From a bacterium (lineage in GTDB: Bacteria; Bacteroidota; Bacteroidia; Bacteroidales; P3): a stretch of 64,000 bases of DNA. Below the pieces are notes generated by a model. The model did no database searches. It saw only the letters and a list, made by a program, of their open reading frames with translations, and was not told the origin of the DNA. Below are positions 21,805 through 41,252 of the stretch, piece by piece. Every line of letters begins with the position of its first letter. Positions within the stretch are counted from its first letter, which is position 1. The DNA lies in assembly GCA_014803485.1 (NCBI GenBank), contig JAAVBQ010000035.1, positions 7,428 through 71,427 on the forward strand, in the 5' to 3' direction. The translations under genes and the position numbers were made by a program.

Positions 21805-23262
21805 TTAAAGAAGCCCCGTGACGAGATAGTAGTAGAAAACATAAGAAGCCCCACAGCGCGCCCACAACTCCTCATAATCAAGTTCGCCCCGTTTCCAAAG
21901 CCGACAGGTCTCCTCCACACGCCGGCATTCGCGTGCCACCTCCTCAGTCACCTCTCCCGGCTTAGCGTTGCGGGCCAAGAAAAGCCCCTCTTGCAGATAT
22001 TCGGGCAGGGACAGGCCCAAGCGATGGTAGTGGGCGGCATCGGCAGGTAGATTTTCCCAATGCAGATAATAAAGGTCGGTAAAGGTCTTGTAGTCTAAGA
22101 GCAAGGTATCAGACAAGGGCGTATAAATTTTCTCCACCCAAAAGTCGAGAAAAATATCTTCTTCTATGGTGCGCTTGTTGCCACTTTTGCGGTGGTGACT
22201 TAGATAGGGATGCGTGGCAGCGGTTTCGGGGCTGTTATAGGCCTGCCAATAGTTCGCCTCAGCCCTATAAGCCAAAGTGTGCGCCTGATAGTGAAGATAG
22301 CGTTGTGCCAAATCGTAACGGCCCAAATAGATGCTGTTGGGGATAATCCAACGTACAGCCGCGTTGCTAAGCCCGTGCGTATTGAGATGGTTGTTCGCAT
22401 AGATGCGCATAGGCACCATAAGCCCCACATGCCAGGCCAAGCGGATATGGGGAATATTATAACGGCCCGCCGCCGAGTTCGCATAGGGAAACATAGCCTG
22501 CATTTCCGGCACTTGGCCGAAAGAGAAAATTTCGCGGTTGAGCCGATGAGTTTTGAGCAGGGCGAGTTTGAGATTCACCGAAAGCAAATCGCGATATTCA
22601 GCCTTGGCTTGCGAAAGCAACTTTTCTTCGGGGTGGGCATCGAAATAGCGGGACGCAAGGCCATAGACGTGTTCCCAATCCTGCGCCTCGGCCGCCCTTT
22701 CGCTTTTATAGAAAGTCCGCTGCACGGCAAAAGCCTTGTTAAATGTTGGAGAGAATGCCCCTACCCCTAAAGTGGGTAGAAACAAAAGCAGAGCCCAAGC
22801 GGGCAATGTTTTTCTATAAACAGCCGGTTTGCGACACCACAAGGCTTTGATACCTATAGCCACAGCCAATAGAGCCATCAAGCGCAACACCCAGGCCAAG
22901 CCCTCCACACCTCTATAGGCCATCAAAAAATAGAAAGGCGCCAAGATTGCCGTGGCGATAAGCCCGCCTATGCGCAAGCCACCACGCAAAAAAAGATAAT
23001 AGAGCTCGGCAAACCAAAGGCCCAACAACAGTAGGTGGACAACCACAGCCCCTACCCCCCAATGCCAAAATTGAATCAAGAAACGAGCCAACCAATGGGC
23101 CGGGCCTTCGGTAATAAGAATTTCGCTATGAAATTCGCGCAAAAAACAAAAGAAACTTGCTTGTTCGGCCGCCCAAAAACAGGGGAAACAAAGCACCAGC
23201 CAAAGCACAACAAGGGCGGCCAATATGCCTGCAAAAACAATACGAGTTTGGCAACGCCTCAT
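21805..23262 (-). CDS. Family M1: polytopic membrane protein with a helical C-terminal domain (possibly DUF6057-type, unverified), 485 aa
   Basis: Several hydrophobic helices in the first ~190 aa, then a soluble ~290-aa region. Family motifs: FFCFLREF, HWLARFLIQFW, LKLALLKTHRLN, aromatic C-terminus YVFYYYLVTGLL. Last gene of the minus arm, 3 nt after the upstream gene. Confidence 0.7.
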   Translation of the reverse strand: MRRCQTRIVFAGILAALVVLWLVLCFPCFWAAEQASFFCFLREFHSEILITEGPAHWLARFLIQFWHWGVGAVVVHLLLLGLWFAELYYLFLRGGLRIGGLIATAILAPFYFLMAYRGVEGLAWVLRLMALLAVAIGIKALWCRKPAVYRKTLPAWALLLFLPTLGVGAFSPTFNKAFAVQRTFYKSERAAEAQDWEHVYGLASRYFDAHPEEKLLSQAKAEYRDLLSVNLKLALLKTHRLNREIFSFGQVPEMQAMFPYANSAAGRYNIPHIRLAWHVGLMVPMRIYANNHLNTHGLSNAAVRWIIPNSIYLGRYDLAQRYLHYQAHTLAYRAEANYWQAYNSPETAATHPYLSHHRKSGNKRTIEEDIFLDFWVEKIYTPLSDTLLLDYKTFTDLYYLHWENLPADAAHYHRLGLSLPEYLQEGLFLARNAKPGEVTEEVARECRRVEETCRLWKRGELDYEELWARCGASYVFYYYLVTGLL

Positions 23263-23265
23263 AGC

Positions 23266-23952
23266 CTATTTGCCGAGAAACATGCGGCAGTTGTGATATT
23301 CCTGAAGCGTTTGCTTATCGGGAAGGCGTTCAAAATCGGCAAGTGCTTCTTCATAGCGCTCCAACATATAGAGATACATGCCCCGCGATTTATAGGGCCA
23401 AAGGTTAGTGGGGTCGTGCTGAATCATTTTGGTGAGCAGCTTCACCATAGGCTCGCGGGAATCTTTGGCCTTTATCTTGTTGCTCTCATACCAAATCACC
23501 TCAGCCTTATGAGGATATTTTTTCCTTAAATCCTTTTTGAGCTTTTGGTTAAGTTTTCCGTACTCCACACTCATCGCCGTGGTGTCACCGAAACCCGCTA
23601 ACTTTCCGATAAATTCCTTATAGAGATAGTCCAAGCCGAAAGGCGTGGGGGCAATAAGGCTTTCCTTATAGGCCTCGTAGGCCGCCCAGGCCTCTTCGGT
23701 TTTATGCAACTCGAGTAGTTGGTTAATGCTGTCGGGCAAGGCAAGAATCCCCGAGGTGGCCTGATAGAGACTGTCGGAAACTCGGGCCTGCACTTGCGCC
23801 AAAGAATCGGCCACAAAGGCCGCGCGCAGAGCGATGGAATCCGCCTTAGGGTCTTCGTTCACTCTGCGTGAGGCCACGGCAGCAGACTGGGCAAAACCCG
23901 TGCCACAAAAAAACAAAAGGGATAGAAAAGCTATTGCCAAACGCTGCATCAC
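23266..23952 (-). CDS. Small secreted protein with a TPR-like C-terminal motif, 228 aa
   Basis: Signal peptide MMQRLAIAFLSLLFFCGTGFAQS. C-terminal TKMIQHDPTNLWPYKSRGMYLYMLERYEEALADFERLPD. Paralogous to 23956-24585. Confidence 0.6.
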   Translation of the reverse strand: MMQRLAIAFLSLLFFCGTGFAQSAAVASRRVNEDPKADSIALRAAFVADSLAQVQARVSDSLYQATSGILALPDSINQLLELHKTEEAWAAYEAYKESLIAPTPFGLDYLYKEFIGKLAGFGDTTAMSVEYGKLNQKLKKDLRKKYPHKAEVIWYESNKIKAKDSREPMVKLLTKMIQHDPTNLWPYKSRGMYLYMLERYEEALADFERLPDKQTLQEYHNCRMFLGK

Positions 23953-23955
23953 GAA

Positions 23956-24585
23956 TTATTTTTCTTCCGTTGCGGCAGCCTTTTCTTGCTCAAAATAACT
24001 CTCGCATTCCGCTTTCCAAGGCATTTTGTCGTAGTCGGGATGCTTGCTAAAATCGTGGCAAGCTTCCTGCATCTTGCCCTCGTTCATCAGAGCATAACCC
24101 CTATCCAAATAGGCATTCGTATAAGTAGAATCCGCCTCAATCACCTTAGTATAAATACGGATTCTATCTTGATCGGTGATAGTAGGCAATTCATCCAATT
24201 CCATCAAAATCACCTCTACTCGCTTGCCATAGGTGATTTGCAACTTCTTTTTCGCAGTCTCGTAATTCTCCTTGTATTCAGCCTTATCTGGAAAAATCGC
24301 ACTCATACCCCCGTAAAAATCCTTATCGGCATAGGTTGCCAAAAAATCATCACTTATGGTAGGCCGGAACTTGAGGTATTCCGCAAGTGCCTCCTTATAT
24401 TTTTCGGCTTGCATAAGTTCCAATAAGTTTTCGGGAAGCTCAACACCTCTAGGATTCCCACCATCGCCTATAATAACTGTTGTATCGGCCTGCGCCTCTA
24501 CTACCGCCGTGCTATCGGCGGTCTGCGCCTGCACAGCCCAACATCCGAACAAGCCAAAAAAGCTTATCAAAATCAACTTTTTCAT
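23956..24585 (-). CDS. Small secreted protein with a TPR-like C-terminal motif, 209 aa (tandem paralogue)
   Basis: Signal peptide MKKLILISFFGLFGCWAVQAQ. C-terminal TKVIEADSTYTNAYLDRGYALMNEGKMQEACHDFSKHPD aligns with its neighbour. Confidence 0.6.
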   Translation of the reverse strand: MKKLILISFFGLFGCWAVQAQTADSTAVVEAQADTTVIIGDGGNPRGVELPENLLELMQAEKYKEALAEYLKFRPTISDDFLATYADKDFYGGMSAIFPDKAEYKENYETAKKKLQITYGKRVEVILMELDELPTITDQDRIRIYTKVIEADSTYTNAYLDRGYALMNEGKMQEACHDFSKHPDYDKMPWKAECESYFEQEKAAATEEK

Positions 24586-24635
24586 AGTATCTCGTTTTTA
24601 AATAAGTTTCTGCAAAAATAAGGATTTCTTTACAA

Positions 24636-25100
24636 TTAGCGCACACGGCGTTTGTGGTATTTAATCGGGCCGCTGGCCGCGGAAGCAAAGCCCCCGTGCG
24701 TTTGGTCCTCGAGGCTCTGCATACCCTCCTCTCTCAATTTGGCCTCCTTTTCAAGATCAGCCCGCCATTTGCCCTCTATTTTTCTAAGATCGAGCGTCTT
24801 TTGCGCACGGTTGAGCGTATAGCTCAGCGTGGCCTGGTGTTTGTTGTCTTTATCGATTCGCAACTCCTTAATGGCCAGTTCGGGCGCTTCCTGCTTGGCA
24901 TAGGGATTGAGCGAAAGGTTTTCGGCCCTTTCGTCTATAAGCGCATGCGATACGGGCGTGGCGTATTGCTTGGCCTTGGCGAAATCGAGGTCTGTGTAGT
25001 AGGCTTTCAGAAAGGCACGGCCCGTTTTTTCGGCCTGCTGCTTGCCACTGCAGGCACATAGGCACAAGGGAAGAATGAGTAAAAGGAGGTGTTTTTTCAT
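24636..25100 (-). CDS. Small lipoprotein, unknown function, 154 aa
   Basis: Lipobox MKKHLLLLILPLCLCAC-SG. Sits 5 nt downstream of T1 in the same operon. Confidence 0.6.
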   Translation of the reverse strand: MKKHLLLLILPLCLCACSGKQQAEKTGRAFLKAYYTDLDFAKAKQYATPVSHALIDERAENLSLNPYAKQEAPELAIKELRIDKDNKHQATLSYTLNRAQKTLDLRKIEGKWRADLEKEAKLREEGMQSLEDQTHGGFASAASGPIKYHKRRVR

Positions 25101-25105
25101 ACTTA

Positions 25106-26677
25106 TCAGGGGTATTTTAGTATCACAATGCTATCGGGGCGTATCCGCTCCATGCGCGAAAAGCGCTTGGCCTCGGCCGCGCTGGTGCGTATGGGGCGGT
25201 TGGAAAATTCGGGCACGTTGAACGAGCGGAAGAAGCTTAGATAGAAAGCGGGGTCTTTCTGCGGCAACAAAAAGGGTTTGTGCGAAACCCCCAAGCTGTC
25301 TATATAGGTGAAATAGGGGCGGGAATAGAGATTGTCCTCGCGCTTGGTGCTATACATAAGCCAAGACCCTTTGCTGCTGAAGGTATGGTAGCTTTCGGTG
25401 TAGGGGCTGTTTACATTCTCCATTTTCTTGACGGGATAGAGAAAGCCTGGCTTGCGTTCAAAGCCCTCGCCCTCGCTGTCGGAGAGATTGAGCAAGTAGA
25501 GGTCGCTTTCCGGGTGGCGGATGGGGAAGGTGCCGTGGTCGCTAAGACAGACGGCCAAAAAGCATCCATCGGGCGAAAGACGCGGAAAGGAAACGGTATA
25601 TCCTGCCACGGCCGCGTTAATGACGGTGTCGATGCGCCCGAAAGTGCGCGTGGAATCGTTAAAGGCCACGCGGATTAGGTTGTAGCGGATTTTTTTGGAA
25701 AAATCCACATCGTCTTCCTCGGCATCGCGGGGCGGATTGGGGCTTTGGCATACATAGAGCCATTGGCCGTCCGGGCTCCAATAGGGGAAGGTTTCTTCGT
25801 TGAGGCTGTCGCAGAGGCGTTCGTCGGAAAAGATATAATTACGAACCGCATCGTAGAGAATAAGGTCTCCGAAGGAGTCGTAGACCTCGGTGCGGCGCAC
25901 AATGTCTTGGGCATGCACAAAGGGATAGGCCGAAGCCGTGCCGAAGGCGATAAGCTCCTTATTGGGGTGCCAGGCGGGATAGACGCCCCCTTGGGGAAAG
26001 CGCTGCGACTTGAGGTCTACCCGCAGGGTTTGTTCGGGCGTGATAATAAAGGTGCCCGTATGGTCGAAGCGCACGTGATAAACTATATAGTCTCCGTTGC
26101 TTTGGGCATAGGTGTGGCAATTCTCGCAGCCTATGTCTTGCAGGCGGTTGTCGAACAAAAAACGGCTTGTAGCGTCTTGCAGGTTGTATTCTATGGTCTG
26201 CAGCACCGAGGAGGTTTGATAACTGGGCTCTATAAGGCGGCAGCTGAAATAGGGGTCTATGCTGTCTTGCACCTGCCAGGTGAAAGCGTGGCGCTGCACA
26301 CCCTCTTGGGTTTGGAGGCTCAGTTGCACCCGCAGCGTATCGTGCAGGTTTTGCGCCAACAGCCTGTGCCATGCCTTGGGGCTAAAGCGCACCCTATGAC
26401 GGCCCTTGAGCCGCAGAGTATCGGGGCCGCTGCCATAGGCCTTGAGTTCGTAGCGGCTATGGGGCGGCAGTATATAGAAATTGAGGGGCGCGATATTGAC
26501 GGGTATCGTGCAATCGGCATAATCGGGGTAAAGATAGGCCTCGGGCGCGGAAAGATAGCGCATCTGCGCGAGATCGCTTTCGCGTACACGCGGGGAGCAG
26601 GCCACAAAACCTACGGCCATGGCCACAGCCACCAGCCCCCCAACTTTTCTAAATGGATTTTTCGGATTGCTTTGCAT
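25106..26677 (-). CDS. Family T1: lipoprotein with N-terminal domain, CENCH motif and TolB-like PD40 beta-propeller, 523 aa
   Basis: I chose the start MQSNPKNPFRKVGGLVAVAMAVGFVAC (lipobox) rather than the track's 26824 extension, which would lie inside M2. Motifs: YPDYADCTIPVNIAPLNF, DSIDPYFSCR, GCENCH, YPAWHPNKELIAFGT, FPYWSPDGQWLYVC, LSPDGCFLAV, FSSKGSWLMYSTKR, HKPFLLPQKDPAFY. Confidence 0.75.
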   Translation of the reverse strand: MQSNPKNPFRKVGGLVAVAMAVGFVACSPRVRESDLAQMRYLSAPEAYLYPDYADCTIPVNIAPLNFYILPPHSRYELKAYGSGPDTLRLKGRHRVRFSPKAWHRLLAQNLHDTLRVQLSLQTQEGVQRHAFTWQVQDSIDPYFSCRLIEPSYQTSSVLQTIEYNLQDATSRFLFDNRLQDIGCENCHTYAQSNGDYIVYHVRFDHTGTFIITPEQTLRVDLKSQRFPQGGVYPAWHPNKELIAFGTASAYPFVHAQDIVRRTEVYDSFGDLILYDAVRNYIFSDERLCDSLNEETFPYWSPDGQWLYVCQSPNPPRDAEEDDVDFSKKIRYNLIRVAFNDSTRTFGRIDTVINAAVAGYTVSFPRLSPDGCFLAVCLSDHGTFPIRHPESDLYLLNLSDSEGEGFERKPGFLYPVKKMENVNSPYTESYHTFSSKGSWLMYSTKREDNLYSRPYFTYIDSLGVSHKPFLLPQKDPAFYLSFFRSFNVPEFSNRPIRTSAAEAKRFSRMERIRPDSIVILKYP

Positions 26678-28505
26678 AGGAGGGGGGTTGGGGTTGTAGG
26701 GTTTGGGGAATCTCGTGCATATAGAGGTCGTAGAACCAATAGGTGTGCATCCATCTATGGGCCAAATCGGCAAACGAAATCTCGTCGCGCTGAAACTTAA
26801 GGTTGTCGAGCACAAAGAGTGCAAAATCGCGCTGCGTTTCGGCTTCTATTTCGTTTATATCGGTGGGCGTGGTGGCCGCTGCCGGCGAATAGCCCGCTAT
26901 AGCCAACAGGGCTTCCTGCACATGGCGGGGCATGCCTTGCGGATAGCATTCTTTTATCTGGCTGCGATGGGGACCAATATCTCCGGGATTCTTGTCAAGC
27001 AGGCAAAGCGCAAGGTAGTATTCGAAAAACAAAGGATTATAGCCCCTATAGAGGAAGTTGCGGCGGGCGTTCTTGTCGGGTTTATAGGCATCCACGGCAT
27101 AGTTGGAGGGGGGAAGCATGGCTCGTCCCCTTTCTATCTGCGCTTGGTTCACCGAGTCCTTGCCATGAAACAGACTTTGCCGCATAATATGCACGAATTT
27201 GGAGGCGGGCAGCGTATCGTTCAATATCAGGCTCACCTTGATAATCTCGCGCATCACCACAGGTGAATATATATGACTGGTTATCCAATCGTAGTTTTGG
27301 TGCAGGCTTTCGCTGAAATTGCCCGCATAGGCATAGTAAACGGGGGTTACGTAGGATTCGGGGCGGTTGACCAACTCAGAGGGAAAAAGGAAGGGAAAGG
27401 TGGAAAGCCTATAGGTGAAAATCTCCCCGCTGGCCTTGCCCGTGGCCAAAAGGCAGGTCTTGAGCTGGGCTTCGTAGAGCAAATCCTCGGCCAAATGACC
27501 CGTGGCGGCGGTTTGGTCGGGATAGGCTTTGTTGAGAAGTTGCAAAGCCTCTTGCCAGCGATATTCGCGGCAAAGCCGGTCTACCACAAAAAAACGGGAC
27601 ATAGGTTTGGCCTGCGTGGGCGTGATGCCGAGCGAGAAGAGACCTACCAAGAGGCAGAGCCCAATCGTTATATATCTGGAAATCTTGCCTTTTATCCATG
27701 CCCAAAGGGGCGAAGCCATCCATCCTACAATCCCCACCACCACACAAAGTGTGGCAAGAGGCTTCACATAGAAATAGCCGAAAGGCACTTGAATATAGTT
27801 GGTACTGATGGCGTATCCAAGGTTGTGCATCTTTAGGCCCGGCGAGAAAAAGGCATAGGGCTGCCAAATCCATACCCCCACGCAACACAAAACGCCTATC
27901 ACCAGCGTATAGAACGCCAGGCGTTTGAAAAATGCGGCCCAAGCACGGGCCTCGGCCAAACAATCCGAGAGGTCTATCAAGTTGTAGAACACCCAAGCCA
28001 CCAAAATATACTCGCGTATATAAAACACCAAAAAGGCCAAGTAGACGATGCGGAGCGCCATGCAGCGGGTTTTGCCGCAGGTTTTGCGCCAGACTACGCC
28101 GCCCAAGCCTGTGGCAAGAAACACGAGAGGCCAAATCATGAATGTTTGGGGAAACACAGGCAACAAACAGGCCGTGAGCGCAAAACCTATAAGGGTTTGC
28201 CCCGGGCTTTCCAGACCCGCCGCCATATTGAGGCTCCAAGCCGTCAGCGTGAGCAAAAGCGCACAGATAAGAACACCCAAGGCGGGATAGTAGGCAAACT
28301 GCACCAAGAAACTGTTGGTATAGAGCAACGGCCCCCATATTTCGCCGCGAAATTCATCCACATAGGAGGCCGAAAAGCGGAAAAGGGAGCTATGTGCTTC
28401 CCAACCCGCCAAAACTTCCCTGAGGCCGAAATAGAGCACGCAAAAGAATACCACCCCTGCAAGCAGGTAGGCAAGAAGTTTCCACAAGGCATTCTTTCGG
28501 TTCAT
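26649..28505 (-). CDS. Family M2: polytopic membrane protein, 618 aa
   Basis: ATG start MNRKNALWKLLAYLLAGVVFF is preferred over the upstream TTG at 28541, by analogy with the paralogue N-termini. About 9-10 hydrophobic helices, then a soluble C-terminal domain. Its 3' end overlaps the T1 start by 29 nt. Confidence 0.7.
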   Translation of the reverse strand: MNRKNALWKLLAYLLAGVVFFCVLYFGLREVLAGWEAHSSLFRFSASYVDEFRGEIWGPLLYTNSFLVQFAYYPALGVLICALLLTLTAWSLNMAAGLESPGQTLIGFALTACLLPVFPQTFMIWPLVFLATGLGGVVWRKTCGKTRCMALRIVYLAFLVFYIREYILVAWVFYNLIDLSDCLAEARAWAAFFKRLAFYTLVIGVLCCVGVWIWQPYAFFSPGLKMHNLGYAISTNYIQVPFGYFYVKPLATLCVVVGIVGWMASPLWAWIKGKISRYITIGLCLLVGLFSLGITPTQAKPMSRFFVVDRLCREYRWQEALQLLNKAYPDQTAATGHLAEDLLYEAQLKTCLLATGKASGEIFTYRLSTFPFLFPSELVNRPESYVTPVYYAYAGNFSESLHQNYDWITSHIYSPVVMREIIKVSLILNDTLPASKFVHIMRQSLFHGKDSVNQAQIERGRAMLPPSNYAVDAYKPDKNARRNFLYRGYNPLFFEYYLALCLLDKNPGDIGPHRSQIKECYPQGMPRHVQEALLAIAGYSPAAATTPTDINEIEAETQRDFALFVLDNLKFQRDEISFADLAHRWMHTYWFYDLYMHEIPQTLQPQPPSYAKQSEKSI

Positions 28506-28573: not shown

Positions 28574-30220
28574 ATGAAAGGCTTTATTTCCTGTTTGCGT
28601 TTTGCCGCCGTGGGCTTGGCGACGACCCTGGTCGCGGGCTTGGGACTGTGGGCTTTTACGGCCTGCCGTGGCCCGCATGGAGAGGCTTTGCCTCTTGGGG
28701 TTTCGGCCACCGAGGCGGTGTTTCCCTACGATACCGACAGCATTTGCATTCCCTCCAACATAGCGCCGCTCAACTTCTGCCTGCGCCCCGCCTCGAGCTG
28801 GAGCCAACCGCAGGTGCGGATGTGTTTCTTTAACCGCGAGGGGGCTTCGGTGGCTTCGTTTGGCGTGCCTATGGGCAAGAACGGGAGCCGCATTCCGCTC
28901 AAGAAGTGGCGCAAGGCTTTGCAGAAAGCCGCCGGGGGGCAGATTTTGGTGGAGGTTTCGGCTGTTAGGGAAGGGGTTTTGTATAGGTTAGAGCCTTTGC
29001 ATTGGTTTGTGAGCCAAGATGCCATAGACCCTTATCTGCTTTTCCGCGCCAGCCAATACGAGGAGGGGGAACATGGTTGGGTGTTTCTGCGCCAACGCCG
29101 GCTCACCGATTTCGAAACCCGCCAGGTGCTCGACAACCGCCTTATGGACAAGAACTGCATGAACTGCCACGATTGCTACGATCATAGGGCTTCGCACATG
29201 GTGGTGCATCTGCGCGAGGCGCATAAGGGTACCTTGCTGATAAACGGCAAGGAGGCACACAAGATACAGGTGCCGGCCAACTATCAGATACGGCTCACCT
29301 ACCCTGCCTGGCATCCTTCGGGGCGCTACGTGGCTTTCTCCACCAACCTGCCCCATTCGGTGCACTACGCCAACGCCACGCATAAAATCATCTATACGCT
29401 CGATACGCTCAGCGATATTGTTGTGTTGGACGTGGAGAACATGAGGCTGTTTTCTTGCCCCGAACTGACGCGCGAGGAGGACGAGGCGGTTTTCCCCACT
29501 TGGAGCCGCGATGGAAAACGTTTGTATTTCTGTGTGTCGCCGCACAAACGCTACGACAGCCTGCCCTATCCGCAATATGCCGACACAAGTTTGGGATTCC
29601 GTCAGAACCGTGTGGAACAGGTGTGGGCCGATTTGATGCAGATGGATTTTGACCCCGAGACGGAGCGTTTCTCGAACTTCGCCTGCACCTATCCTTTCTC
29701 GCAGATGCAGAAAAGCGCGTGTATGCCCAAGCTCTCGCCCGACGGCAAGTATATGGTGGTTTCTTTGCTCAAGGCCAGCACGTTTCCCTTGCAGAACTTG
29801 GGCGATTTCTACAGGTTGAACTTGCAGGACTCCACCGTGGAGGAGCTGCGCGAGCTCAATACGGAGGGTTCGGAAAAGGGGCATTCGTTTTCTTCGTCGG
29901 GAAAGTGGATGGTGTTTTCCAGCAGCCGGCGCACGTTGGCTATTCCTGAAACCTATATCACACATTACGATTCTGTTTCGGGGCATTTTTCGAAGCCTTT
30001 CTTGGTGCCGCAGAAGTGGGGCGATTTCTACCTCACCAATCTGCGGGGTTTTGTATTTCCCGTATTGAGCACCGAACCTGCGGCTTTGCAGGCGCGGGCT
30101 TTGGCGGGGGTGGCTCGGGAGGAGGCCATGGACTTGCAGATAGATACTTCGTTGGAGGGTTTCCGCATTACCGACGAGGAATTGGAGGCGGGCACCGTGC
30201 AATTTGTGGGAGGGCATTAG
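28574..30220 (+). CDS. Family T2: lipoprotein with N-terminal domain, CMNCH motif and TolB-like PD40 beta-propeller, 548 aa
   Basis: Lipobox LWAFTAC. Motifs: IPSNIAPLNF, DAIDPYLLFR, NCMNCH (29156-29170), YPAWHPSGRYVAFST, FPTWSRDGKRLYFC, LSPDGKYMVVS, FSSSGKWMVFSSSR, SKPFLVPQK. Ends ...FVGGH. Confidence 0.8.
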   Translation: MKGFISCLRFAAVGLATTLVAGLGLWAFTACRGPHGEALPLGVSATEAVFPYDTDSICIPSNIAPLNFCLRPASSWSQPQVRMCFFNREGASVASFGVPMGKNGSRIPLKKWRKALQKAAGGQILVEVSAVREGVLYRLEPLHWFVSQDAIDPYLLFRASQYEEGEHGWVFLRQRRLTDFETRQVLDNRLMDKNCMNCHDCYDHRASHMVVHLREAHKGTLLINGKEAHKIQVPANYQIRLTYPAWHPSGRYVAFSTNLPHSVHYANATHKIIYTLDTLSDIVVLDVENMRLFSCPELTREEDEAVFPTWSRDGKRLYFCVSPHKRYDSLPYPQYADTSLGFRQNRVEQVWADLMQMDFDPETERFSNFACTYPFSQMQKSACMPKLSPDGKYMVVSLLKASTFPLQNLGDFYRLNLQDSTVEELRELNTEGSEKGHSFSSSGKWMVFSSSRRTLAIPETYITHYDSVSGHFSKPFLVPQKWGDFYLTNLRGFVFPVLSTEPAALQARALAGVAREEAMDLQIDTSLEGFRITDEELEAGTVQFVGGH

Positions 30221-33372: not shown

Positions 33373-34449
33373 ATGAAAACAAGGATTTGGGTGATTTTCT
33401 GTGTGGCGGCTCTGCTGACGGCTTGCAAGGAGTCTTCCGACAACATGGACAAGAAGTTGCAGAAAATGGAGCGGCTGTGCTTGGAGGAGCGCTATGAGGA
33501 GGCCGTGGCGTTTGCCGATGATTATTGGTTTTCTCACCCTTGCCCGATAAGCGATTTGGTGAACGGGCAGAACACGCTTTACGAGGGGCTTTCGGAGGAC
33601 GAAATCATTTTCCGTCTGCGTCTTGCGTCCTATACGAAAACGGCTCTCATCGGCTCGGGTAGCCTTGTTTCGCGCTTCTTCTCCTACTACCGCATTCCCG
33701 AAATCTACAATGGTATGGAAGACGGGGCGATAGGAGAATATTCGTTGGCGGGTATGCTCCGTCAGCGGGCGTTGGATAATCCGACGGCGGTTTATTGCAC
33801 GGGTATCAACATCATAGAGAAAGACGGAGTGCAGGGCGAGGTGGTTTCGCTCATGGTGCCGGCCATGATGGCGTGCGGGCAGTGGACTTTGGCGGAGCGG
33901 TATATCTATGTGTTGGCTGGGATAAAGGGCTGGAAAAAAGAGGCTTTGAAGTATAGTGAGGTGGTGGCGTTCTTACAGGCTTCTTCGGTTTCGGACGAGG
34001 TTTCGGACGACGTGCGGGCTTTGGCTGAAAAAATCACTGCCTATGGTCAAAAGGGCCTCACCGACTACATGAACGACACATGGAGCCTGGAGGAGAACTG
34101 CCGTGCAAGATGGCAACAAAATCCCTCCTCTTTTTCCGTCTTAAATTGTATTATTATATTTGACATGCTCCGCAAGAATCTGGAGCATGCGGCCTCTTTG
34201 CTGCCTGCCTACGGGCAGCTGCCGCGTCCTTTGCAGGAGATGATCTGCATCATGCAGCGGGAAATGTTCCCGATTGCCGATTCGGTTCAAGCATTTTTGA
34301 AGGATTTTCCTGTGGATGAAAGTGTGGAGCGGAATTTCCGCCGTTTCCTGCACGATTTTTCGCTTTGGCAGCAAGGTCAGAAGACCGCCGAAGAACTCAC
34401 CGCCGAATACGGCCACACCTACCCCTACCGCTACTACCTGATTTATTAA
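33373..34449 (+). CDS. Family Ms: lipoprotein resembling only the soluble C-terminal domain of family M (no TM block), 358 aa
   Basis: ATG at 33373 gives MKTRIWVIFCVAALLTAC (lipobox). The body is helical-repeat-like. The C-terminus YGHTYPYRYYLIY matches the aromatic tails of M1, M3 and M4. Confidence 0.6.
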   Translation: MKTRIWVIFCVAALLTACKESSDNMDKKLQKMERLCLEERYEEAVAFADDYWFSHPCPISDLVNGQNTLYEGLSEDEIIFRLRLASYTKTALIGSGSLVSRFFSYYRIPEIYNGMEDGAIGEYSLAGMLRQRALDNPTAVYCTGINIIEKDGVQGEVVSLMVPAMMACGQWTLAERYIYVLAGIKGWKKEALKYSEVVAFLQASSVSDEVSDDVRALAEKITAYGQKGLTDYMNDTWSLEENCRARWQQNPSSFSVLNCIIIFDMLRKNLEHAASLLPAYGQLPRPLQEMICIMQREMFPIADSVQAFLKDFPVDESVERNFRRFLHDFSLWQQGQKTAEELTAEYGHTYPYRYYLIY

Positions 34450-34462
34450 AATTGTGTACCAT

Positions 34463-34515: not shown

Positions 34516-34794
34516 ATGCTTACAGTCAGTGCCCGCGAATTTCGGACGAACCAACGCCATTATCTTGACCAAGTGAAGCAAGGCTTGGAGTTGCTCATTA
34601 CGCGCAAGAAAGATGCCTTTAAGGTGTCGAGTGTGAAGAAGGACGACACTTTGATGACCAAGGAGGAATTCTTTGCCAAGATAGATCGTGCCAAGGAGCA
34701 GGCGCGGCAGAGGTTGGGATATGAGATGAAGCCGGGAGAGTCTTTCGAAGATTTTTTTCAACGCGTGAAAAAAGAAAGACATGTACAAGGTTGA
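34516..34794 (+). CDS. Phd/YefM-like type II antitoxin-family protein, 92 aa, with no recognisable toxin partner
   Basis: The N-terminus MLTVSAREFRTNQRHYLDQVKQGLELLITRKKDAFKV matches the usual Phd/YefM pattern (xxVSxxEFRxNxxxxLDxV...I.R). The C-terminal half is charged and helical. Confidence 0.55.
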   Translation: MLTVSAREFRTNQRHYLDQVKQGLELLITRKKDAFKVSSVKKDDTLMTKEEFFAKIDRAKEQARQRLGYEMKPGESFEDFFQRVKKERHVQG

Positions 34795-36373
34795 TTATAT
34801 TGGATTTTTACGTAATATACGGACTTGGGTGTGGACGGTGGCGTGTGCGGGGGTGTTGGTGACGGGATGCGGCAGGACTATCGGCGATGGTGTCGAAAGC
34901 GATTTTGCGGCACCGCTCTACCCGGACTATGGCGACAGCTTGGTGATTCCCTGCAATATCGCGCCGCTGAACTTTGCCCTACCCGATTCGTTCACAAAAA
35001 TTTGTGTGGAGATAGGTGTGGAGAACCCGCAGGGGACGGCGACAACAAAGCGTCTCCGTGCCGGAAAACGCGGTGTGGTCTTTCCTCCGAAATACTGGAC
35101 GGAACTGCTACGGGAAGCCCACACTTCACAAAACCCTATCTGTCTTGTTGTTAAAGCACGTGCTGCGAGTGGCCGAAACTACACTTTCCCTATGGTGCAT
35201 TGGCGCGTGGCCGACTCCATAGATTCCTACCTCACCTATCGTCTTGTGCAACCCACCGACGGCGTGTATAACGAGTTGGATTTGTGGGAGCGTTGCATGG
35301 AAGATTTTTCGACCCGTAAGTTGGTGTCCAACAGCCTGATGAACCACAACTGCTTCAACTGTCACACCTACCACAACGGCGATGCGGCCTCGATGAGCCT
35401 GCACTTCCGCAACCCCTCGAACGGCACGCTGCTGATGGTGAACGGCGATTTGAAGAAAATCCGCGTGCCCTCGCAGGAAGAACTTGCCGAGATGTTGCCG
35501 CCCGAAAAGCGGATGCCTCTCAATCTCGTCTATCCCGCATGGCACCCCGGGGGCGATTGGATAGTGTTTTCCACCCGCATCGAAGGGGTGGGCGGCTACG
35601 CGGCGCACAAGCGCTTCTTCAACCTCCTCGATACGGCTTCCAATCTCGTGTTGTATGATGTGATTCACAATCAATTGGTTTTCGATACGTTGGTGTGGAC
35701 GGAAGATTTTGAGGAAACATGGCCGGCCTGGAGCGCCGACGGGGAATGGCTGTATTTCTGCCGCACGGACAAGGTGAGCGCCGACACGGTGGCCCGCTAC
35801 GCCAACCCTACCGATAGGGTGCGGCATATCTATTTCGACTTGGTGCGGGTGCGTTTTTCGGCTGCCGAGGGGCGTTTTGTGCCGCCCGTGGAGGTGTTGG
35901 CGCATGGTGGGCCCGGTGGCAGTTATTCGGTGCCGCGTATGAATCCCAACGGAGATATTTTAGTGTATTGCAAGGCTTTGTTCAATTCGGTGCCCTATCA
36001 TGCCTACGGCGACTTGTTGGCTATGGATAGGGACGGGAACGCCATCGACTGCGCGGTGCTCAATTCGCCCGAATCGGAGAGTTGGCACGAATGGAGTTCG
36101 AACGGCAAATGGCTGGTTTTTGCGAGCAAGCGGGGCGACGGCCTCTATTCCCTGCCCTACTTTTCCTATTTCGACGGAAAATCGTTCCACAGGCCTTTCC
36201 TTTTGCCGCAACAAGACCCTCGCTTCTATCAAACTTTCCTCAAGGCCTTCAACCTCCCCACCTTGGTGCGCAACGCCTCTCCCCTCACCCCCCAACAGGC
36301 CGCCGCGTTACAGAAAGAGGGCTTGGAAAACGATTTCCCCACCCCCGCCAACCACCAACACTTAGCCCATTAG
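34781..36373 (+). CDS. Family T4: lipoprotein with N-terminal domain, CFNCH motif and TolB-like PD40 beta-propeller, 530 aa
   Basis: Lipobox GVLVTGC. Motifs: YPDYGDSLVIPCNIAPLNF, DSIDSYLTYR, NCFNCH (35351-35365), YPAWHPGGDWIVFST, WPAWSADGEWLYFC, MNPNGDILVY, WSSNGKWLVFASKR, HRPFLLPQQDPRFY. The start overlaps the antitoxin-like gene by 14 nt. Confidence 0.8.
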   Translation: MYKVDYIGFLRNIRTWVWTVACAGVLVTGCGRTIGDGVESDFAAPLYPDYGDSLVIPCNIAPLNFALPDSFTKICVEIGVENPQGTATTKRLRAGKRGVVFPPKYWTELLREAHTSQNPICLVVKARAASGRNYTFPMVHWRVADSIDSYLTYRLVQPTDGVYNELDLWERCMEDFSTRKLVSNSLMNHNCFNCHTYHNGDAASMSLHFRNPSNGTLLMVNGDLKKIRVPSQEELAEMLPPEKRMPLNLVYPAWHPGGDWIVFSTRIEGVGGYAAHKRFFNLLDTASNLVLYDVIHNQLVFDTLVWTEDFEETWPAWSADGEWLYFCRTDKVSADTVARYANPTDRVRHIYFDLVRVRFSAAEGRFVPPVEVLAHGGPGGSYSVPRMNPNGDILVYCKALFNSVPYHAYGDLLAMDRDGNAIDCAVLNSPESESWHEWSSNGKWLVFASKRGDGLYSLPYFSYFDGKSFHRPFLLPQQDPRFYQTFLKAFNLPTLVRNASPLTPQQAAALQKEGLENDFPTPANHQHLAH

Positions 36374-37920
36374 TGGCCGGAGTCTTGGGATGTGGGGGTA
36401 GATTGAGGGGTGAAGGCGCTTAGGTCGGGGATGTGGGCGGTTTGCAGGCTCCATTGCCGCCACTTCTGCGGATTGAGCGGCGAAGGGGTGCGGCTGAATA
36501 CAGGGAAAATCTGCATGCGCGTGTTCCTTTTATAATAATACGGATTTCTCTCAGGAATAACAAAGGGCGTGGAAAAACGGGCGGCCGCAGGCTGGCCCTC
36601 CGCACTATCGCTCTCGAAATGCGCTATATACAAAGCCGAATTGGAGCCGTTCTGCATCTTGCTCCTATACACCGCCCACTTGCCGTCCACGCTCCAGCCT
36701 GCGGCCGCCTCGCCGTCGGGACTGTTGAGTTCGTCTAAGGCGCGAAGTGTGTCTTTTTCGGTATCTATCAAATAAATATCACCCTGATTTTGCGAAGCGT
36801 GCGAGCCCATCATCATGGCCGAAACCAAGATATACCGCCCCTCGGGATGCACGGCGGGCATGGCCGCGCTCACGTGGCTGCGGCTCACGGCACTCACTAA
36901 TTCGGGTTCTCCGAAAGTATCCGTATCGGGATTGAAATCAATTTTATAGACATCATATCGGAAAGCGATAAGCGCTTCTTTCTCGTTTTCGGGAGTAAGG
37001 CTGTCTAAAGGAAGCGTGGCCGTGCGGCAGAAATAAAGGGTGCGGCCGTCGGCGCTCCACGCGGGGAAAGTGTATTGAAAGGCGGTGTCGCTCAGCGCGG
37101 GGACGGTGAAGATGCGGTCGCGGAGAATGTCGTAGAGCACGATGCGCCCGCCGTAGTCGGCGATAAGGTCTTGGGTGCGGTGGGGATTGACGTAGTTGAA
37201 AGGTGCTATCTTGGTGGTAGCAAAAGCAATATAGGGGTGCATGGGGTTGTGGGCGGGATAGGAAAGACGGAAATCGTAGGTGGCGGGGACGGCAATCTTG
37301 ACGGCGGTGTCGGCCTGAATGACAAGGGTGCCGGCGTGGGCGCCGCGTATGTGGACAATCATACGCTCGGCGTTCCCGGCGCCCACCGCATGGCAGTTCA
37401 TGCAGTTGTTGTCGGTGAGGGCGTTGTCGATAAGTAATTTATGTTCAAAGTCCTGCAAGGAGCGTTGGTAGACTTGCAGGCGGCCTCCGGGGTTGTCGTC
37501 GAAGGGGCCGGAACGGTAAATCACATAGGGATCTATGCTGTCGGGGCTGATTTTCCACGAAAAGGGCGCGAAGGTATCGATGTGGATTTTGAAAGCGCCG
37601 TGATTGGCAACAGCCTGCGAGGTGAGTTTGCGCCAAGTGCGGAGCGAAAACTGCACCTTGCCCCGCGTTTTCATCGTGAGGAAATCGACCGCCGCGCCCA
37701 TGCTGTCGCAGACATCAATCCGCACGTGGTGGCGACGGGTGCCGTTGTCGCCGATATAGAAATTGAGGGGCGCGATGTTGCAGGGCAACACCAAATCCTT
37801 GCCATAATCGGGGTAGATGAGGGTTTCGGCAGTCTCCGACTGCCTACATCCCACCGCCGCGAAAGCCACCGCTGTTATTGCCAAAACCCTATATATAAAT
37901 TTTTTAAATATCATCTTCAC
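36370..37920 (-). CDS. Family T5: lipoprotein with N-terminal domain, CMNCH motif and TolB-like PD40 beta-propeller, 516 aa
   Basis: Lipobox AFAAVGC. Motifs: YPDYGKDLVLPCNIAPLNF, DSIDPYVIYR, NCMNCH (37390-37404), YPAHNPMHPYIAFAT, FPAWSADGRTLYFC, VHPEGRYILVS, WSVDGKWAVYRSK, STPFVIPERNPYYY. Closest paralogue of T3. Ends ...DSGH. Confidence 0.8.
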   Translation of the reverse strand: MKMIFKKFIYRVLAITAVAFAAVGCRQSETAETLIYPDYGKDLVLPCNIAPLNFYIGDNGTRRHHVRIDVCDSMGAAVDFLTMKTRGKVQFSLRTWRKLTSQAVANHGAFKIHIDTFAPFSWKISPDSIDPYVIYRSGPFDDNPGGRLQVYQRSLQDFEHKLLIDNALTDNNCMNCHAVGAGNAERMIVHIRGAHAGTLVIQADTAVKIAVPATYDFRLSYPAHNPMHPYIAFATTKIAPFNYVNPHRTQDLIADYGGRIVLYDILRDRIFTVPALSDTAFQYTFPAWSADGRTLYFCRTATLPLDSLTPENEKEALIAFRYDVYKIDFNPDTDTFGEPELVSAVSRSHVSAAMPAVHPEGRYILVSAMMMGSHASQNQGDIYLIDTEKDTLRALDELNSPDGEAAAGWSVDGKWAVYRSKMQNGSNSALYIAHFESDSAEGQPAAARFSTPFVIPERNPYYYKRNTRMQIFPVFSRTPSPLNPQKWRQWSLQTAHIPDLSAFTPQSTPTSQDSGH

Positions 37921-37926
37921 TTAAAT

Positions 37927-39753
37927 TTACATCATTTTTCCGAAGAGGTAGTGGTAGGTGTAGGTGGAGGCGTATTGGCGGGTGAGGTCGGCGAAGCTTT
38001 CCCGGCCGTTCTGCACCAAATAGCGGGCCCTATACACGGCGTCCACTCTCTCGAAATTGTCTATATTAATATGAAAACCGTCGAAATCACGACGCAGGAT
38101 AATTTGCGGATTCTCGCCCTGCTCCATGCACCAAATACATAGCGCTTCCTGCACATATACAGGCAGTACAGACGCCCCGGCCGCAGCATAGGCCTTCACC
38201 ACGGCGGGCATAGCCCCAAGGTCCTTATCCAAAAGCAACAATAACGTGTAATAATCCAATAGTTCACGCTCCAACACCGCGCCTTCTTCCATGCGGCGCG
38301 CTCCGTAAATCCGCACCCATTCGTCGAGTGTCGTCCCTCCCCTCACCAATTCGGGAGAGGAAACGGGCACGGGGCGGGCTCCGTCTTCGGCACCGACACA
38401 GGCGGGCGCCGACACGCGCTGTCCGTAGAGCGTGTTTTTTACGTAGCGTTCCGTAATCTTCGCCAAACGAATTTGTTGGGTTCCGTATTCGGCGGCAAGC
38501 AAGGGTGCCGCCAGGCGGTTTTGATAGCCAACCTTTTCGGTGTAGGCAAAGATGAAAGGCACTTGCGGTGCGTATAGCCGCAGGGCATCGTAGGTTTTGA
38601 CATACGGCCACGCGCCCGCATAGGAAAACGGCAGGGCGGCGGGGTACATCAGATTCATTTCGTAGTAGTTGGAGTAGTCCAAAAAGCGGTTGCACAATTC
38701 ATCTTGCCGTAAAAGCGAAAGTTTGAGACAGGCGGCCAAAAGGAAGCGGTCTGCCGTGCTCTTTTCGTCTTTCATTTCGTCTTGGGTGGGGTGATATTTC
38801 TCGTAGTAACGGGCGCAGAGTTGCAGGCTGCGGGTGTAGTTGTCTTGTGCAATGGCGTTCTGCGCTTTGAGCAGGGTGCGCTCGAGGGGTGTTTGCAGGG
38901 AGAGGAAGCTCATGGCCAGCGCGAGGCCGAGGAAGGGCAGGAAAAGACGGGCTTCGTGGCGGCCAAAAATGCCTAAGCCCATGCCTATGATGAAGAGGGC
39001 GACCATCGCCCACACGTAGGGGGGATAGGCGAAAGCGGGGGTATAGGCCACATTCCATGCGAGCAGGGTGGCCAGCAGCAGGGCTACCAAGCCGCCGACC
39101 CAAGTTTTCGTGTTCACTTTTCCTACCACCAATATTAATACAAAACCAACCACAAACAACAAAGCCCATTTCCCGCCTATCACAAAACATAAAAGCGTAA
39201 CGACAAACAAGATGCAGGAGAATGCAAGGGGGTATATCTTCGTGCGCAGCAGTCTTGCCGTGAGGTTCAAAGCCACCATATCGAGCAGCAGGGCTATGGC
39301 AACGGCGGCGTGCAGGGGTTCGGGGTGGGTGAAGAAGTAGAAGAACAGGGGCAGTAGCAAGAGGGTGTAGACATGGGCGGTGGTGCGGCAACTGAGCAGA
39401 AAGAGGGTGGTGACGCCCGAGGCCACGAGCAAAGCGAGGGGCTTATTCAGGTAGAATTGGCTCACGAAGCGCCAAAGGAATTCGGCGATGCGGGCTTGCA
39501 GGACGTTGGGGGAGGTTCCTGCCCATAGTTCGGCATCGGAAAGGATGCCGTTTGTGGCGACAATTCCTTGTGATACACTTGCTTGTGTGCGAGAGAAGAG
39601 GCCGTCGAAAAAGGGGCGCACAAATTCGGGGAGGTAGCAGAAGAATGTGATGTGGCCTTGGTGCTCGAGGGCCGGCAGGGCGTAGAGCAGACAAAAGGCC
39701 GCGAAAGCCACCGCCGCCCCCCACGCTATGTAGGATTTTATGTGGCTCTTCAT
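37927..39753 (-). CDS. Family M4: polytopic membrane protein, 608 aa
   Basis: Start MKSHIKSYIAWGAAVAFAAFCLL at 39753 forms an ATGA overlap with the M5 stop; the track's 39972 extension would lie inside M5. Motifs: LPALEHQGHITFFCYLPEFVRPFFDG, AEFLWRFVSQFYLNKP, LKLSLLRQDELCN, LYAPQVPFIFAY, C-terminus YASTYTYHYLFGKMM. Closest paralogue of M3. Confidence 0.75.
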   Translation of the reverse strand: MKSHIKSYIAWGAAVAFAAFCLLYALPALEHQGHITFFCYLPEFVRPFFDGLFSRTQASVSQGIVATNGILSDAELWAGTSPNVLQARIAEFLWRFVSQFYLNKPLALLVASGVTTLFLLSCRTTAHVYTLLLLPLFFYFFTHPEPLHAAVAIALLLDMVALNLTARLLRTKIYPLAFSCILFVVTLLCFVIGGKWALLFVVGFVLILVVGKVNTKTWVGGLVALLLATLLAWNVAYTPAFAYPPYVWAMVALFIIGMGLGIFGRHEARLFLPFLGLALAMSFLSLQTPLERTLLKAQNAIAQDNYTRSLQLCARYYEKYHPTQDEMKDEKSTADRFLLAACLKLSLLRQDELCNRFLDYSNYYEMNLMYPAALPFSYAGAWPYVKTYDALRLYAPQVPFIFAYTEKVGYQNRLAAPLLAAEYGTQQIRLAKITERYVKNTLYGQRVSAPACVGAEDGARPVPVSSPELVRGGTTLDEWVRIYGARRMEEGAVLERELLDYYTLLLLLDKDLGAMPAVVKAYAAAGASVLPVYVQEALCIWCMEQGENPQIILRRDFDGFHINIDNFERVDAVYRARYLVQNGRESFADLTRQYASTYTYHYLFGKMM

Positions 39754-41252
39754 CGCGACTGGTTTTTCGAAAGACCTCTGTAATAGTGATACAAACTTCG
39801 CTTGTTGAGCGTGCGGCGCGTGTAGTAGAGCGTCTGACGGAAAATGTCGTATTGGTGTTCCTGCAACGAGGCTTCCAAAAGCGGCTCCAGATAGCGGTTC
39901 TGCATCCCGTATTCGTTGATGCCCGACTGTGTTAATTCGAGTGTCTTGTTGCTCAATCCCGCTGCGTTGCAAAGACTTATGTAGAGGTAGCTGTTGGCGG
40001 GAACGCCCTCGGCAGGCGCGGCCAGAAGGTTCTCTACCAAGGCTTCTTGGTTGTGTTCACCCATAAGGAGCGCATATTTGCGGGCTTCCTCCATGCGGGC
40101 CTGCACGCGGGGATCCTTGGTTTTCTTGGCAAAGGGCCCGGGATAGGCTTTTTCGGTGCTGAAATAGCGTTCACACACCATAAAGCACTTGGCGTAGTCT
40201 TGTTTTCGCAAGGCGTTGTCCACGCGTATCACGGCGCGGCGTTCGGCATCGTGCGAACAGAGAAACAGCACAAAGCCCACACAAACCGCAATGAAAGAAA
40301 GCAATACATTGTAAGAGGGCGAAAGGGCGGGTTTGCCGTCGAGCACTTCGCCCTGCCGTTTTTTCCATTCGTGGATGTATACTTTCCGATTGTTGTAGGA
40401 GTTCAACACCAAACCGGGAATGCAGGCCAGACCGTAGACAATAAGCATTGCCCACACATACCACGGGGCTTTGAAGGGCGTATAGCCCGTGTAGTGCAGG
40501 CAGACCACAGCCAAAACGGTCATCAAAACCAAGGTGATGCCCAAACTCCAACAACGGATGCGCAAAAGACCTTCTTTCTTGTCGCCCAAAGCCATAGGTA
40601 GACCTATAAGATGCACCAACGTAACGCTTATGGCGAACAGCAGGGCCCAATAGCCCACCGCATAGTAGAGTGCGACAACGGCCACCACGGCGTAGGTGTG
40701 CATGAGGATGCGGGGAAAGGGGGTGTTGGGGTGACGGGCGGCCAGGCGGGTGAGGCTGAAATAGAGCGTGAGGGCGGCCATGATGAGCCACAGACTGATG
40801 GCGGTGGAAGCCTGCACGAGGTTATAGGAGGGGAACAGCAGGAAGAACAGGGGTAGCAGGAAGGGGGTGTAGGGGCCCACGGTTTTTTTGCAGGTGTAGT
40901 AGAATCCCCATACCATAAGGCCCACCACGAGAATGATAAGCGGCACATTCATATAGAATTGACTCACAAACCGCCAAAAAAATTCATTGACGCGGGGCGT
41001 TTGGTCGATGTCGAAAAAGGGACGCACGAAATTGTGGGTGTAGGTAAAGAAGCCCGTATCGGCCTGGTGCTGGAAATAAGGCAGGTAGAAGATGAACCAA
41101 ACTACTGCGAATACAAAGACAATGAGGCCGTTGCCATATCGGAGATATTTCTCCTGCTGGGGGGTGAGCCTTTGGCCGGCGGCGTTCTGCCGATAGGCGC
41201 GGATGAAAGGAGGCCACAGTTTGGAAGGGTTGTATCGTTCAAATCTTTTCAT
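39750..41252 (-). CDS. Family M5: polytopic membrane protein, 500 aa
   Basis: MKRFERYNPSK..., LPYFQHQADTGFFTYTHNFVRPFFDI, NEFFWRFVSQFYMNVP, about 8 hydrophobic helices, a shorter soluble C-terminal domain. Confidence 0.75.
   Translation of the reverse strand: MKRFERYNPSKLWPPFIRAYRQNAAGQRLTPQQEKYLRYGNGLIVFVFAVVWFIFYLPYFQHQADTGFFTYTHNFVRPFFDIDQTPRVNEFFWRFVSQFYMNVPLIILVVGLMVWGFYYTCKKTVGPYTPFLLPLFFLLFPSYNLVQASTAISLWLIMAALTLYFSLTRLAARHPNTPFPRILMHTYAVVAVVALYYAVGYWALLFAISVTLVHLIGLPMALGDKKEGLLRIRCWSLGITLVLMTVLAVVCLHYTGYTPFKAPWYVWAMLIVYGLACIPGLVLNSYNNRKVYIHEWKKRQGEVLDGKPALSPSYNVLLSFIAVCVGFVLFLCSHDAERRAVIRVDNALRKQDYAKCFMVCERYFSTEKAYPGPFAKKTKDPRVQARMEEARKYALLMGEHNQEALVENLLAAPAEGVPANSYLYISLCNAAGLSNKTLELTQSGINEYGMQNRYLEPLLEASLQEHQYDIFRQTLYYTRRTLNKRSLYHYYRGLSKNQSR

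Follow-up and report, generated by a model that had tools for sequence, protein, structure and literature searches.

Several described envelope systems share parts with the gene array analysed here. TolB (TIGR02800; PDB 2ivz, 2hqs and 2w8b) acts in the envelope through docking to partner proteins, and it carries a six-bladed PD40 propeller after a smaller N-terminal domain. PorE and the CHU_0125-type proteins of Bacteroidota combine a TPR-like solenoid, a PD40 propeller and an OmpA domain in the periplasm. GT-C glycosyltransferases with a C-terminal TPR region, such as PMT/TMTC and DUF2723/TMEM260, join this region to an N-terminal polytopic domain whose first external loop contains short helices. 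Cytochrome cd1 nitrite reductase, the alpha subunit of hydrazine synthase and the quinohaemoprotein dehydrogenases are periplasmic enzymes with a C-x-x-C-H motif and a β-propeller, in which haem c is housed in a separate helical cytochrome domain. Here, we describe an array of two gene families, M and T, at positions 21805–41252 of a 64,000-nucleotide stretch of a Bacteroidales genome (the window; GenBank assembly GCA_014803485.1, contig JAAVBQ010000035.1, positions 7,428–71,427). M proteins are DUF6057 membrane proteins, and T proteins are lipoproteins with a TolB-like propeller and an invariant C-x-x-C-H motif. The array is built from one conserved two-gene module, present in five to six copies that go back to ancient duplications. 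A complex of M with T is well supported, and its chemistry is a guess. In our assessment, the module is of a kind that has not been described before.

Each of the four comparisons leaves a clear difference. Like TolB, T carries a six-bladed PD40 propeller behind a smaller domain, but it is a lipoprotein, and its all-β N-terminal domain bears the motifs NIAPLNF, IDPY and C-x-N-C-H, which TolB lacks. T is thus not TolB proper: it scores 12–28 bits against a cut-off of 343 for the TolB model, and its neighbours encode DUF6057 proteins rather than tolQRA/pal. PorE and CHU_0125 share the order of solenoid and propeller seen in natural M–T fusions, with scores of 12–21 bits against cut-offs of 600–620; M–T lacks the OmpA peptidoglycan-binding domain and is anchored instead by a nine-transmembrane domain, whereas PorE is not known to contain C-x-x-C-H. 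The GT-C enzymes share the overall layout of M, including the short helices in the first external loop, but no similarity in fold or hidden Markov model (HMM) was detected, M has no invariant catalytic Asp or Glu, and its transmembrane (TM) domain is dispensable in one paralogue, Ms. In contrast to the haem c/propeller enzymes, the motif of T lies in a loop at the entrance of the first blade, and neither the PDB sequence search nor Foldseek returned a match of T to these enzymes.

The array holds 15 open reading frames (ORFs), one fewer than counted in the initial annotation, and 11 of these belong to M and T. All 11 were recovered with one stop codon each, at the positions and in the three arms that had been proposed. 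On the minus strand, M2 (26649–28505) precedes T1 (25106–26677), its partner, and M1 (21805–23262) stands at the far end of the same arm. The plus-strand arm is headed by T2 (28574–30220), whose ancestral partner is M1, and continues with M3 (30222–31727), its partner T3 (31730–33331), Ms (33373–34449) and the T gene with which Ms is paired, T4 (34781–36373). The third arm, again on the minus strand, comprises M5 (39750–41252), M4 (37927–39753) and T5 (36370–37920), the partner of M4. M2 and T1 overlap by 29 nt, while M3–T3 and M4–T5 are separated by 2 nt and 6 nt, as previously noted; T2 and M3 are 1 nt apart, and M5 and M4 overlap by 4 nt. T4 and T5 converge, with their 3′ ends overlapping by 4 nt at 36370–36373, so that no terminator can lie between them and transcription of the two arms must either collide or run antisense into the other gene. 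A scan for sigma-70-type promoters gave background levels and is uninformative for Bacteroidota. Paralogues are 28–45% identical within T and 20–36% within M, which indicates that the copies are old rather than recent repeats.

The pairing of M with T extends well beyond this genome. A T-family profile searched against GTDB contigs, with one genome per species, yielded at least 577 confirmed stretches. Among the matches listed, most come from Bacteroidales and Marinilabiliales, with T-bearing taxa including Parabacteroides, Bacteroides, Prevotella, Odoribacter, Alistipes/Rikenellaceae, Muribaculaceae, Dysgonomonas and Prolixibacteraceae, and the nearest relatives of the array are uncultured Bacteroidales metagenome-assembled genomes (MAGs). 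KSB1, Planctomycetaceae and Anaerolineaceae MAGs likewise carry the pair, the KSB1 and Anaerolineaceae MAGs in the order M-T-M-T. Gene-neighbourhood statistics, which the initial annotation had proposed as a check, were obtained by translating all ORFs in the best 80 of the at least 577 loci and scoring them with HMMs built from our own M and T alignments. A same-strand M gene lies within 300 nt of at least 92 of the 106 T genes (about 87%; 91 detected by script, plus one case in locus L010), upstream of T in 73 cases and downstream in 18. Most of the remaining T genes adjoin an ORF of 530–720 aa with 3–8 hydrophobic segments and an aromatic C-terminal tail (TYWYYFMF, TYWWFYYF and similar). 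Judged by these features, the adjoining ORFs appear to be divergent M proteins missed by the HMM, and with them counted adjacency would be close to 100%.

Individual loci show the same arrangement. In a Parabacteroides merdae contig, M is followed by T after a 3-nt gap, and multi-pair arrays similar to the one described here occur in Muribaculaceae-like MAGs (L010–L013, L021, L066 and L085). When neighbouring genes were clustered across 85 loci, no third gene was found to be conserved with the pair, and only SusC and SusD genes recurred. Four M–T loci (L041, L046, L047 and L063) lie in MAGs labelled Roseburia, Christensenellaceae, Streptococcaceae and Lachnospiraceae, and are probably mis-binned Bacteroidales contigs rather than Firmicutes occurrences. 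A further pair (L087) was found in a MAG labelled Candidatus Azobacteroides sp., a group of reduced-genome endosymbionts of termite protists; if this assignment is right, it hints at a housekeeping role.

Gene fusions place the two proteins in one polypeptide. A profile of the T N-terminal domain, searched against 1.84 billion cluster representatives, retrieved 1069 clusters (50% identity) at E values up to 1e-3. In these the domain always occupies approximately residues 30–200 of a 480–540-aa protein, except in three long proteins (P0284, P0268 and P0196), which are DUF6057–T fusions by Pfam. A fourth fusion, P0139 (1088 aa), contains a complete DUF6057 domain (1e-141), a linker of about 45 residues without a lipobox, and a complete T. 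Since the fusion follows the C-terminus of M, the solenoid and T should lie in one compartment, which for an exported T would be the periplasm; the absence of a lipobox from the fused T agrees with this placement.

Partner identity is also conserved between genomes, for the pairs M2–T1, M1–T2, M3–T3, Ms–T4 and M4–T5. M2-like genes lie beside T1-like genes in L010 and L013, and M3 accompanies T3 in the related MAGs L008 and L009, where M3 is 91–92% identical and of equal length. In L013, an M1-like gene is directly upstream of a T2-like gene, which indicates that M1 and T2 were parted in the window by rearrangement. In L009, L011 and L012, the gene directly upstream of the T4-like gene is Ms-like; L014 has an Ms-like gene flanked by two T4-like genes, and in L010 an M5-like gene adjoins a T5-like gene in convergent orientation. 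Within the array, the closest paralogues are T3 with T5 (45% identity) and M3 with M4 (36%), mutually, indicating that whole pairs were duplicated. The proposal that M and T partners duplicate together is therefore upheld by adjacency elsewhere, by the four fusions, by orthologous T genes beside orthologous M genes and by this mutual closeness.

The initial suggestion that M corresponds to DUF6057 (PF19529; cut-off 29.8 bits) proved correct. M2 scores 127.5 bits (1e-37) over the whole profile (positions 3–568), M1 63.9 bits (1.8e-17; positions 298–567) and Ms 61.6 bits (9e-17; positions 306–566) over its C-terminal half, M4 59.1 bits (5e-16) over both halves, and M5 40.9 bits (1.7e-10; positions 5–298) over its N-terminal half. 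M3 reaches only 15 bits, below the cut-off, and is counted as a divergent member through its homology to M4 (36% identity over 323 aa, E 3e-51). A second profile search for M homologues added at least three proteins. M2 is named 'hypothetical protein' at NCBI.

In an AlphaFold2 model (23 sequences; predicted local distance difference test, pLDDT, 83), the full-length M2 comprises approximately nine TM helices and, at residues 317–595, an α-solenoid predicted to be periplasmic; its first external loop carries two short helices. The paralogues vary around this plan. M2, M4 and M5 have 7–8 hydrophobic segments (about 8 in M4, which is also full-length), in line with the 5–10 TM helices first annotated for every M, whereas M1 and M3 have only 4–5; M1, with about five, retains the full C-terminal solenoid and the aromatic tail. 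In M5, the TM domain is followed by only the first part of the solenoid; the last ~130 aa are missing, and with them the aromatic tail that had been ascribed to all M proteins. L010 carries a full-length M5-like gene. Ms is a TM-less lipoprotein form of the C-terminal solenoid (lipobox LTAC). The motifs FFxYxxxFVRPFF and FLWRFVSQFY, likewise described as general, hold strictly in M3, M4 and M5 but not in M1 or M2. As a separate observation, Ms (solenoid only, with K-E-S-S-D after the lipobox) and M5 (TM domain and early solenoid) resemble complementary fragments of one DUF6057 protein.

Conservation in M was scored over 66 full-length members. Q69 is the sole well-conserved polar residue of the TM region. 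A Glu just past TM1 (Glu36) is present in 49 of the 66 proteins (74%) and is followed, within the first periplasmic loop, by a PGG motif; this Glu is absent from M3 and M5. The 66 members show no invariant charged TM residue, no invariant acidic residue and no conserved His or Cys, a pattern that argues against a role in haem ligation or electron transfer and against a typical GT-C enzyme. A role of M as haem lyase or electron conduit was accordingly rejected, there being no conserved His, Cys or Trp-rich motif. Such conservation would fit a scaffolding protein or, at the very most, one that carries a hydrophobic molecule. Searches of NCBIfam and of PDB sequences gave no match for M, and Pfam at lax thresholds on 23 members returned only DUF6057 and stray TPR/PPR matches. 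Foldseek gave no significant match of the M2 model in the PDB: the best had an E value of 0.036, and the matches were all TPR/PPR-like.

In family T, T1–T5 score 31.9–57.2 bits for PD40 against a cut-off of 20.9 (E values of 2e-09 for T1, 1.5e-15 for T2 and 5.6e-15 for T4), and their alignment contains 62 invariant columns, including NIAPLNF, D.ID.Y...R, C.NCH and H.R. Of the motifs first proposed, C-x-N-C-H is indeed invariant, while 'YPDY' reads FPYD in T2 and DSIDPY reads DSIDSY in T4. The lipobox is evident by scan in T1, T3 and T5; in T2 (FTAC, Cys31) and T4 (VTGC, Cys30) it was assigned by eye, the scan having picked an upstream Cys. An AlphaFold2 model of T3 (92 sequences; pLDDT 89; predicted template-modelling score, pTM, 0.89) comprises a signal peptide, a β-sandwich at approximately residues 28–130, C-M-N-C-H at 163–167, and a propeller of six four-stranded blades extending to about residue 480. 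Foldseek ranks TolB first among PDB structures for this model (E 1.4e-12; TM-score 0.55 on the target), followed by S9 peptidase and metal-centred propellers. Searches of PDB sequences matched only the PD40 blades, and NCBIfam gave only sub-threshold matches to TolB, PorE, CHU_0125 and Dpp5 propellers.

All 211 T-family proteins compared contain C-x-x-C-H, which takes the form C-x-N-C-H in 210, and all have a signal peptide or lipobox. Counted from the first Cys, a Met at +14 occurs in 131 of the 211, a His at +17 in 191 and an Arg at +19 in 198, within a dense set of invariant polar residues. This pattern would suit a covalently attached haem c ligated by His/Met or His/His. In Bacteroides thetaiotaomicron, ccsA/ccsB (System II) adjoin nrfAH, and P. 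gingivalis and P. intermedia have nrfAH as well (PMC10434189), which makes haem c feasible in this order. A T-family protein of the Anaerolineaceae MAG GCA_011682595.1 (P0112, locus L007) is named 'cytochrome C biosynthesis protein' at NCBI, the only functional name for the family in any source.

We propose that M and T form a two-protein complex at the periplasmic face of the inner membrane, in which M serves as the anchor and docking scaffold and T as the cofactor-bearing working part, and we consider this the probable arrangement. M would sit in the inner membrane as a polytopic protein and project its C-terminal TPR-like α-solenoid into the periplasm. T, with its β-sandwich and TolB-like propeller, would be the catalytic or ligand-binding component, and its invariant polar cluster (NIAPLNF, IDPY..R, C-x-N-C-H and H-x-R) most likely holds a covalent haem c or a metal ion. 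The solenoid may dock T physically, because the TM-less Ms still pairs with T4-like genes in at least four genomes. The paralogous pairs may have diversified for different substrates. That the cofactor is haem c and the chemistry periplasmic redox is our guess.

Several points weigh against this proposal. In the T3 model, C-x-x-C-H belongs to a coil/strand stretch just ahead of the first blade, outside any helical cytochrome c fold; sequence matches to cytochromes in the PDB around the motif are non-significant (E above 1), and no Pfam cytochrome domain was found in T. The same ligand set could equally suit a Cys2-His(-His/Met) metal site, such as a structural Zn site or a Cu site. The redox or haem-handling module raised in the initial annotation is thus a possible reading: the motif is universal in the family, yet lies outside a cytochrome c fold. 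M, without conserved His or Cys, is itself unable to pass electrons or serve as a haem lyase. The proposed contact between M and T is drawn from gene linkage, fusions and partner co-inheritance, and each fusion protein comes from a single metagenome contig. The frequent Glu after TM1 and the PGG motif may leave room for an enzymatic or transport role of M.

A glycosyltransferase-like role, in which M acts as a GT-C-type (or Wzy/WaaL-type) lipid-linked glycosyl- or group transferase whose TPR-like domain recruits T as acceptor or substrate-presenting subunit, appears quite unlikely. M does resemble PMT, TMTC and DUF2723 in layout: its N-terminal part is polytopic, the first periplasmic loop contains two short helices, and a TPR-like solenoid forms the C-terminus. 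The Glu past TM1 with PGG in the same loop could also be read in favour of such a role. However, Foldseek against the PDB gave no E value below 0.03 and no GT-C, Wzy, WaaL or SEDS protein among the 50 matches listed, although this tool is weak on helical membrane bundles and the negative is therefore not decisive. In addition, no weak Pfam GT-C matches were seen in the 23 members, no acidic residue is invariant, and M genes whose TM domain is missing or shrunken (Ms, M1 and M3) are still paired with T genes. The GT-C-like factor listed as one hypothesis in the initial annotation accordingly finds no backing. A related candidate, M as the missing O-oligosaccharyltransferase of Bacteroidota, was dropped. 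General O-glycosylation is phylum-wide in Bacteroidota, whereas the pair is multi-copy and, among the loci retrieved, mainly confined to Bacteroidales and Marinilabiliales with a few MAGs of other phyla; the literature gave no lead. A purely mechanical alternative, unlikely in our judgement, is an envelope tether comparable to Tol-Pal or PorE, in which inner-membrane M spans the periplasm to an outer-membrane T, holding the membranes or transferring force without chemistry, and C-x-x-C-H is a structural Zn or disulfide site. The match of T to TolB, the weak NCBIfam matches to TolB, PorE and CHU_0125 (TPR plus PD40 envelope proteins), the lipid anchor of T and the near absence of conserved polar TM residues in M, as expected for a scaffold, are all compatible with a tether. 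Yet the fused T has no lipid anchor and hangs from an inner-membrane protein, so that bridging to the outer membrane is unnecessary; an all-β domain replaces the TolB N-domain; five to six diverged pairs per genome would be odd for a housekeeping tether; and the invariant polar cluster of T resembles an active or cofactor site.

Two further explanations concern the array as a whole. Its several diverged paralogues at one locus could suggest diversified surface receptors or nutrient-binding lipoproteins, comparable to SusD/E/F accessories, with M as export or assembly factor. SusC was found within 8 kb in 20 and SusD in 17 of about 85 loci, and the acidic stretch after the Ms lipobox (C-K-E-S-S-D) resembles a lipoprotein export signal. 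However, this Sus frequency is probably close to chance for Bacteroidales; in none of the T proteins is the lipid-modified Cys followed by an acidic export signal, fusions exist in which T continues the C-terminus of an inner-membrane protein, and the pair also occurs in phyla without Sus-like systems. A surface-receptor family, another of the early hypotheses, is therefore extremely unlikely. That the array is largely decaying, with one or two functional pairs and truncated M1, M3, M5 and Ms as relics of duplication, seems very unlikely. The loss of TM segments in M1 and M3, the shortness of M5 beside its full-length L010 relative and the sub-threshold Pfam score of M3 would fit such decay. 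Against it, all ORFs are intact with conserved motifs, at least four other genomes have short genes of the Ms type ahead of T genes, M3 is 91–92% identical and of the same length in two related MAGs, and no invariant residue is lost from any of the five T proteins.

We found neither a curated family nor a solved structure nor a paper that addresses the function of M or T, and full-text literature searches for DUF6057 and PF19529 were empty. The Pfam entry for DUF6057 carries no functional annotation, and its link to T is unrecorded in the sources searched. The main interpretation of the initial annotation is supported, and none of the outcomes that it named as refuting was encountered. Its impression that the pair matches no characterised system thus stands: NCBIfam, PDB sequences, Foldseek and full-text searches returned only the PD40/TolB-like fold.

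The four remaining genes of the array lie outside the module. Between M1 and T1 on the minus strand are TPRa (23266–23952), a small secreted protein with weak TPR matches below Pfam cut-offs, its paralogue TPRb (23956–24585; 26% identical), and a 154-aa lipoprotein (24636–25100; lipobox LCAC) without Pfam or NCBIfam match. The sole homologues found for TPRa and for this lipoprotein (47% identical) are in L010. On the plus strand, a 92-aa Phd/YefM-like ORF (34516–34794) separates Ms from T4 and overlaps the T4 start by 14 nt. It does not qualify as a type II antitoxin, as it scores 24.8 bits against a PF02604 cut-off of 29.8 and adjoins no toxin ORF, the next gene being T4; no homologue was found in the other M–T loci compared. 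It appears to be an insertion that split the ancestral Ms–T4 pair. A terminator-like hairpin (9-bp stem, T-rich tail) lies at 34453, 4 nt past the Ms stop codon.

Beyond M1, two minus-strand genes (17920–19593 and 19620–21650) encode paralogous secreted proteins of 557 and 676 aa with FGE-sulfatase (SUMF1-like) domains and no NCBIfam assignment; they are placed between M1 (155-nt gap) and a giant gene (43-nt gap). The giant gene (3–17876, minus) starts at an ATG at 17876 with a signal- or TM-like N-terminus (MRRGIWVATLLLLAML...) and exits the window start, so that its product has at least 5958 aa. This product is rich in T, V, G, S and D, with YLGGFGDG repeats near the N-terminus and Pfam matches to SprB repeat, Ig_7 (CHU_C-associated) and PKD, and it looks like an SprB-like gliding or type IX secretion system (T9SS) adhesin. 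A 5316-aa plus-strand ORF at 1041–16991, rich in G, V, R, A and H and without Pfam match, was rejected as a gene and taken as the antisense shadow of the giant gene. In the neighbour clustering, none of the FGE-sulfatase, giant adhesin, TPRa/b or small lipoprotein genes was recurrent beside M–T pairs; the FGE-sulfatase, TPRa/b and small lipoprotein genes are lineage-specific and outside the conserved pair. On the other side, a low-GC island at approximately 43900–48000 (0.41–0.43, against about 0.55 elsewhere) encodes an outer-membrane β-barrel protein, a protein with a Peptidase_S74 chaperone-of-endosialidase domain, and a C10 (streptopain-like) peptidase with an I69 inhibitor domain and a T9SS type-A C-terminal sorting domain; the island was probably acquired horizontally. 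The window flanks are chromosomal, with UvrD, MutS2, a ClC channel, DPP-IV, QueA and RNase R, and the identical sequence also occurs on an 80-kb contig from a gut metagenome.

It is possible, and we put this forward only tentatively, that M–T represents an unrecognised class of periplasmic redox or metallo-enzymes of anaerobic Bacteroidales and some sediment phyla, with haem c or Cu/Fe at the propeller mouth and T docked on a dedicated M. The arrays of Muribaculaceae-like genomes would then provide enzymes for different substrates, for example small molecules from host or diet that are detoxified or respired. The module is common in dominant gut Bacteroidales rather than a curiosity of one genome; the M and T proteins of Parabacteroides merdae each represent more than 3,000 metagenome sequences. 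The single-copy pair of culturable Parabacteroides makes the module directly testable by genetics and biochemistry. Bacteroidales are thought to possess very few c-type cytochromes, and if T does bind haem, it would be a new kind. A coupled membrane protein and lipoprotein with an invariant C-x-x-C-H would add a new piece to the envelope biology of Bacteroidales.

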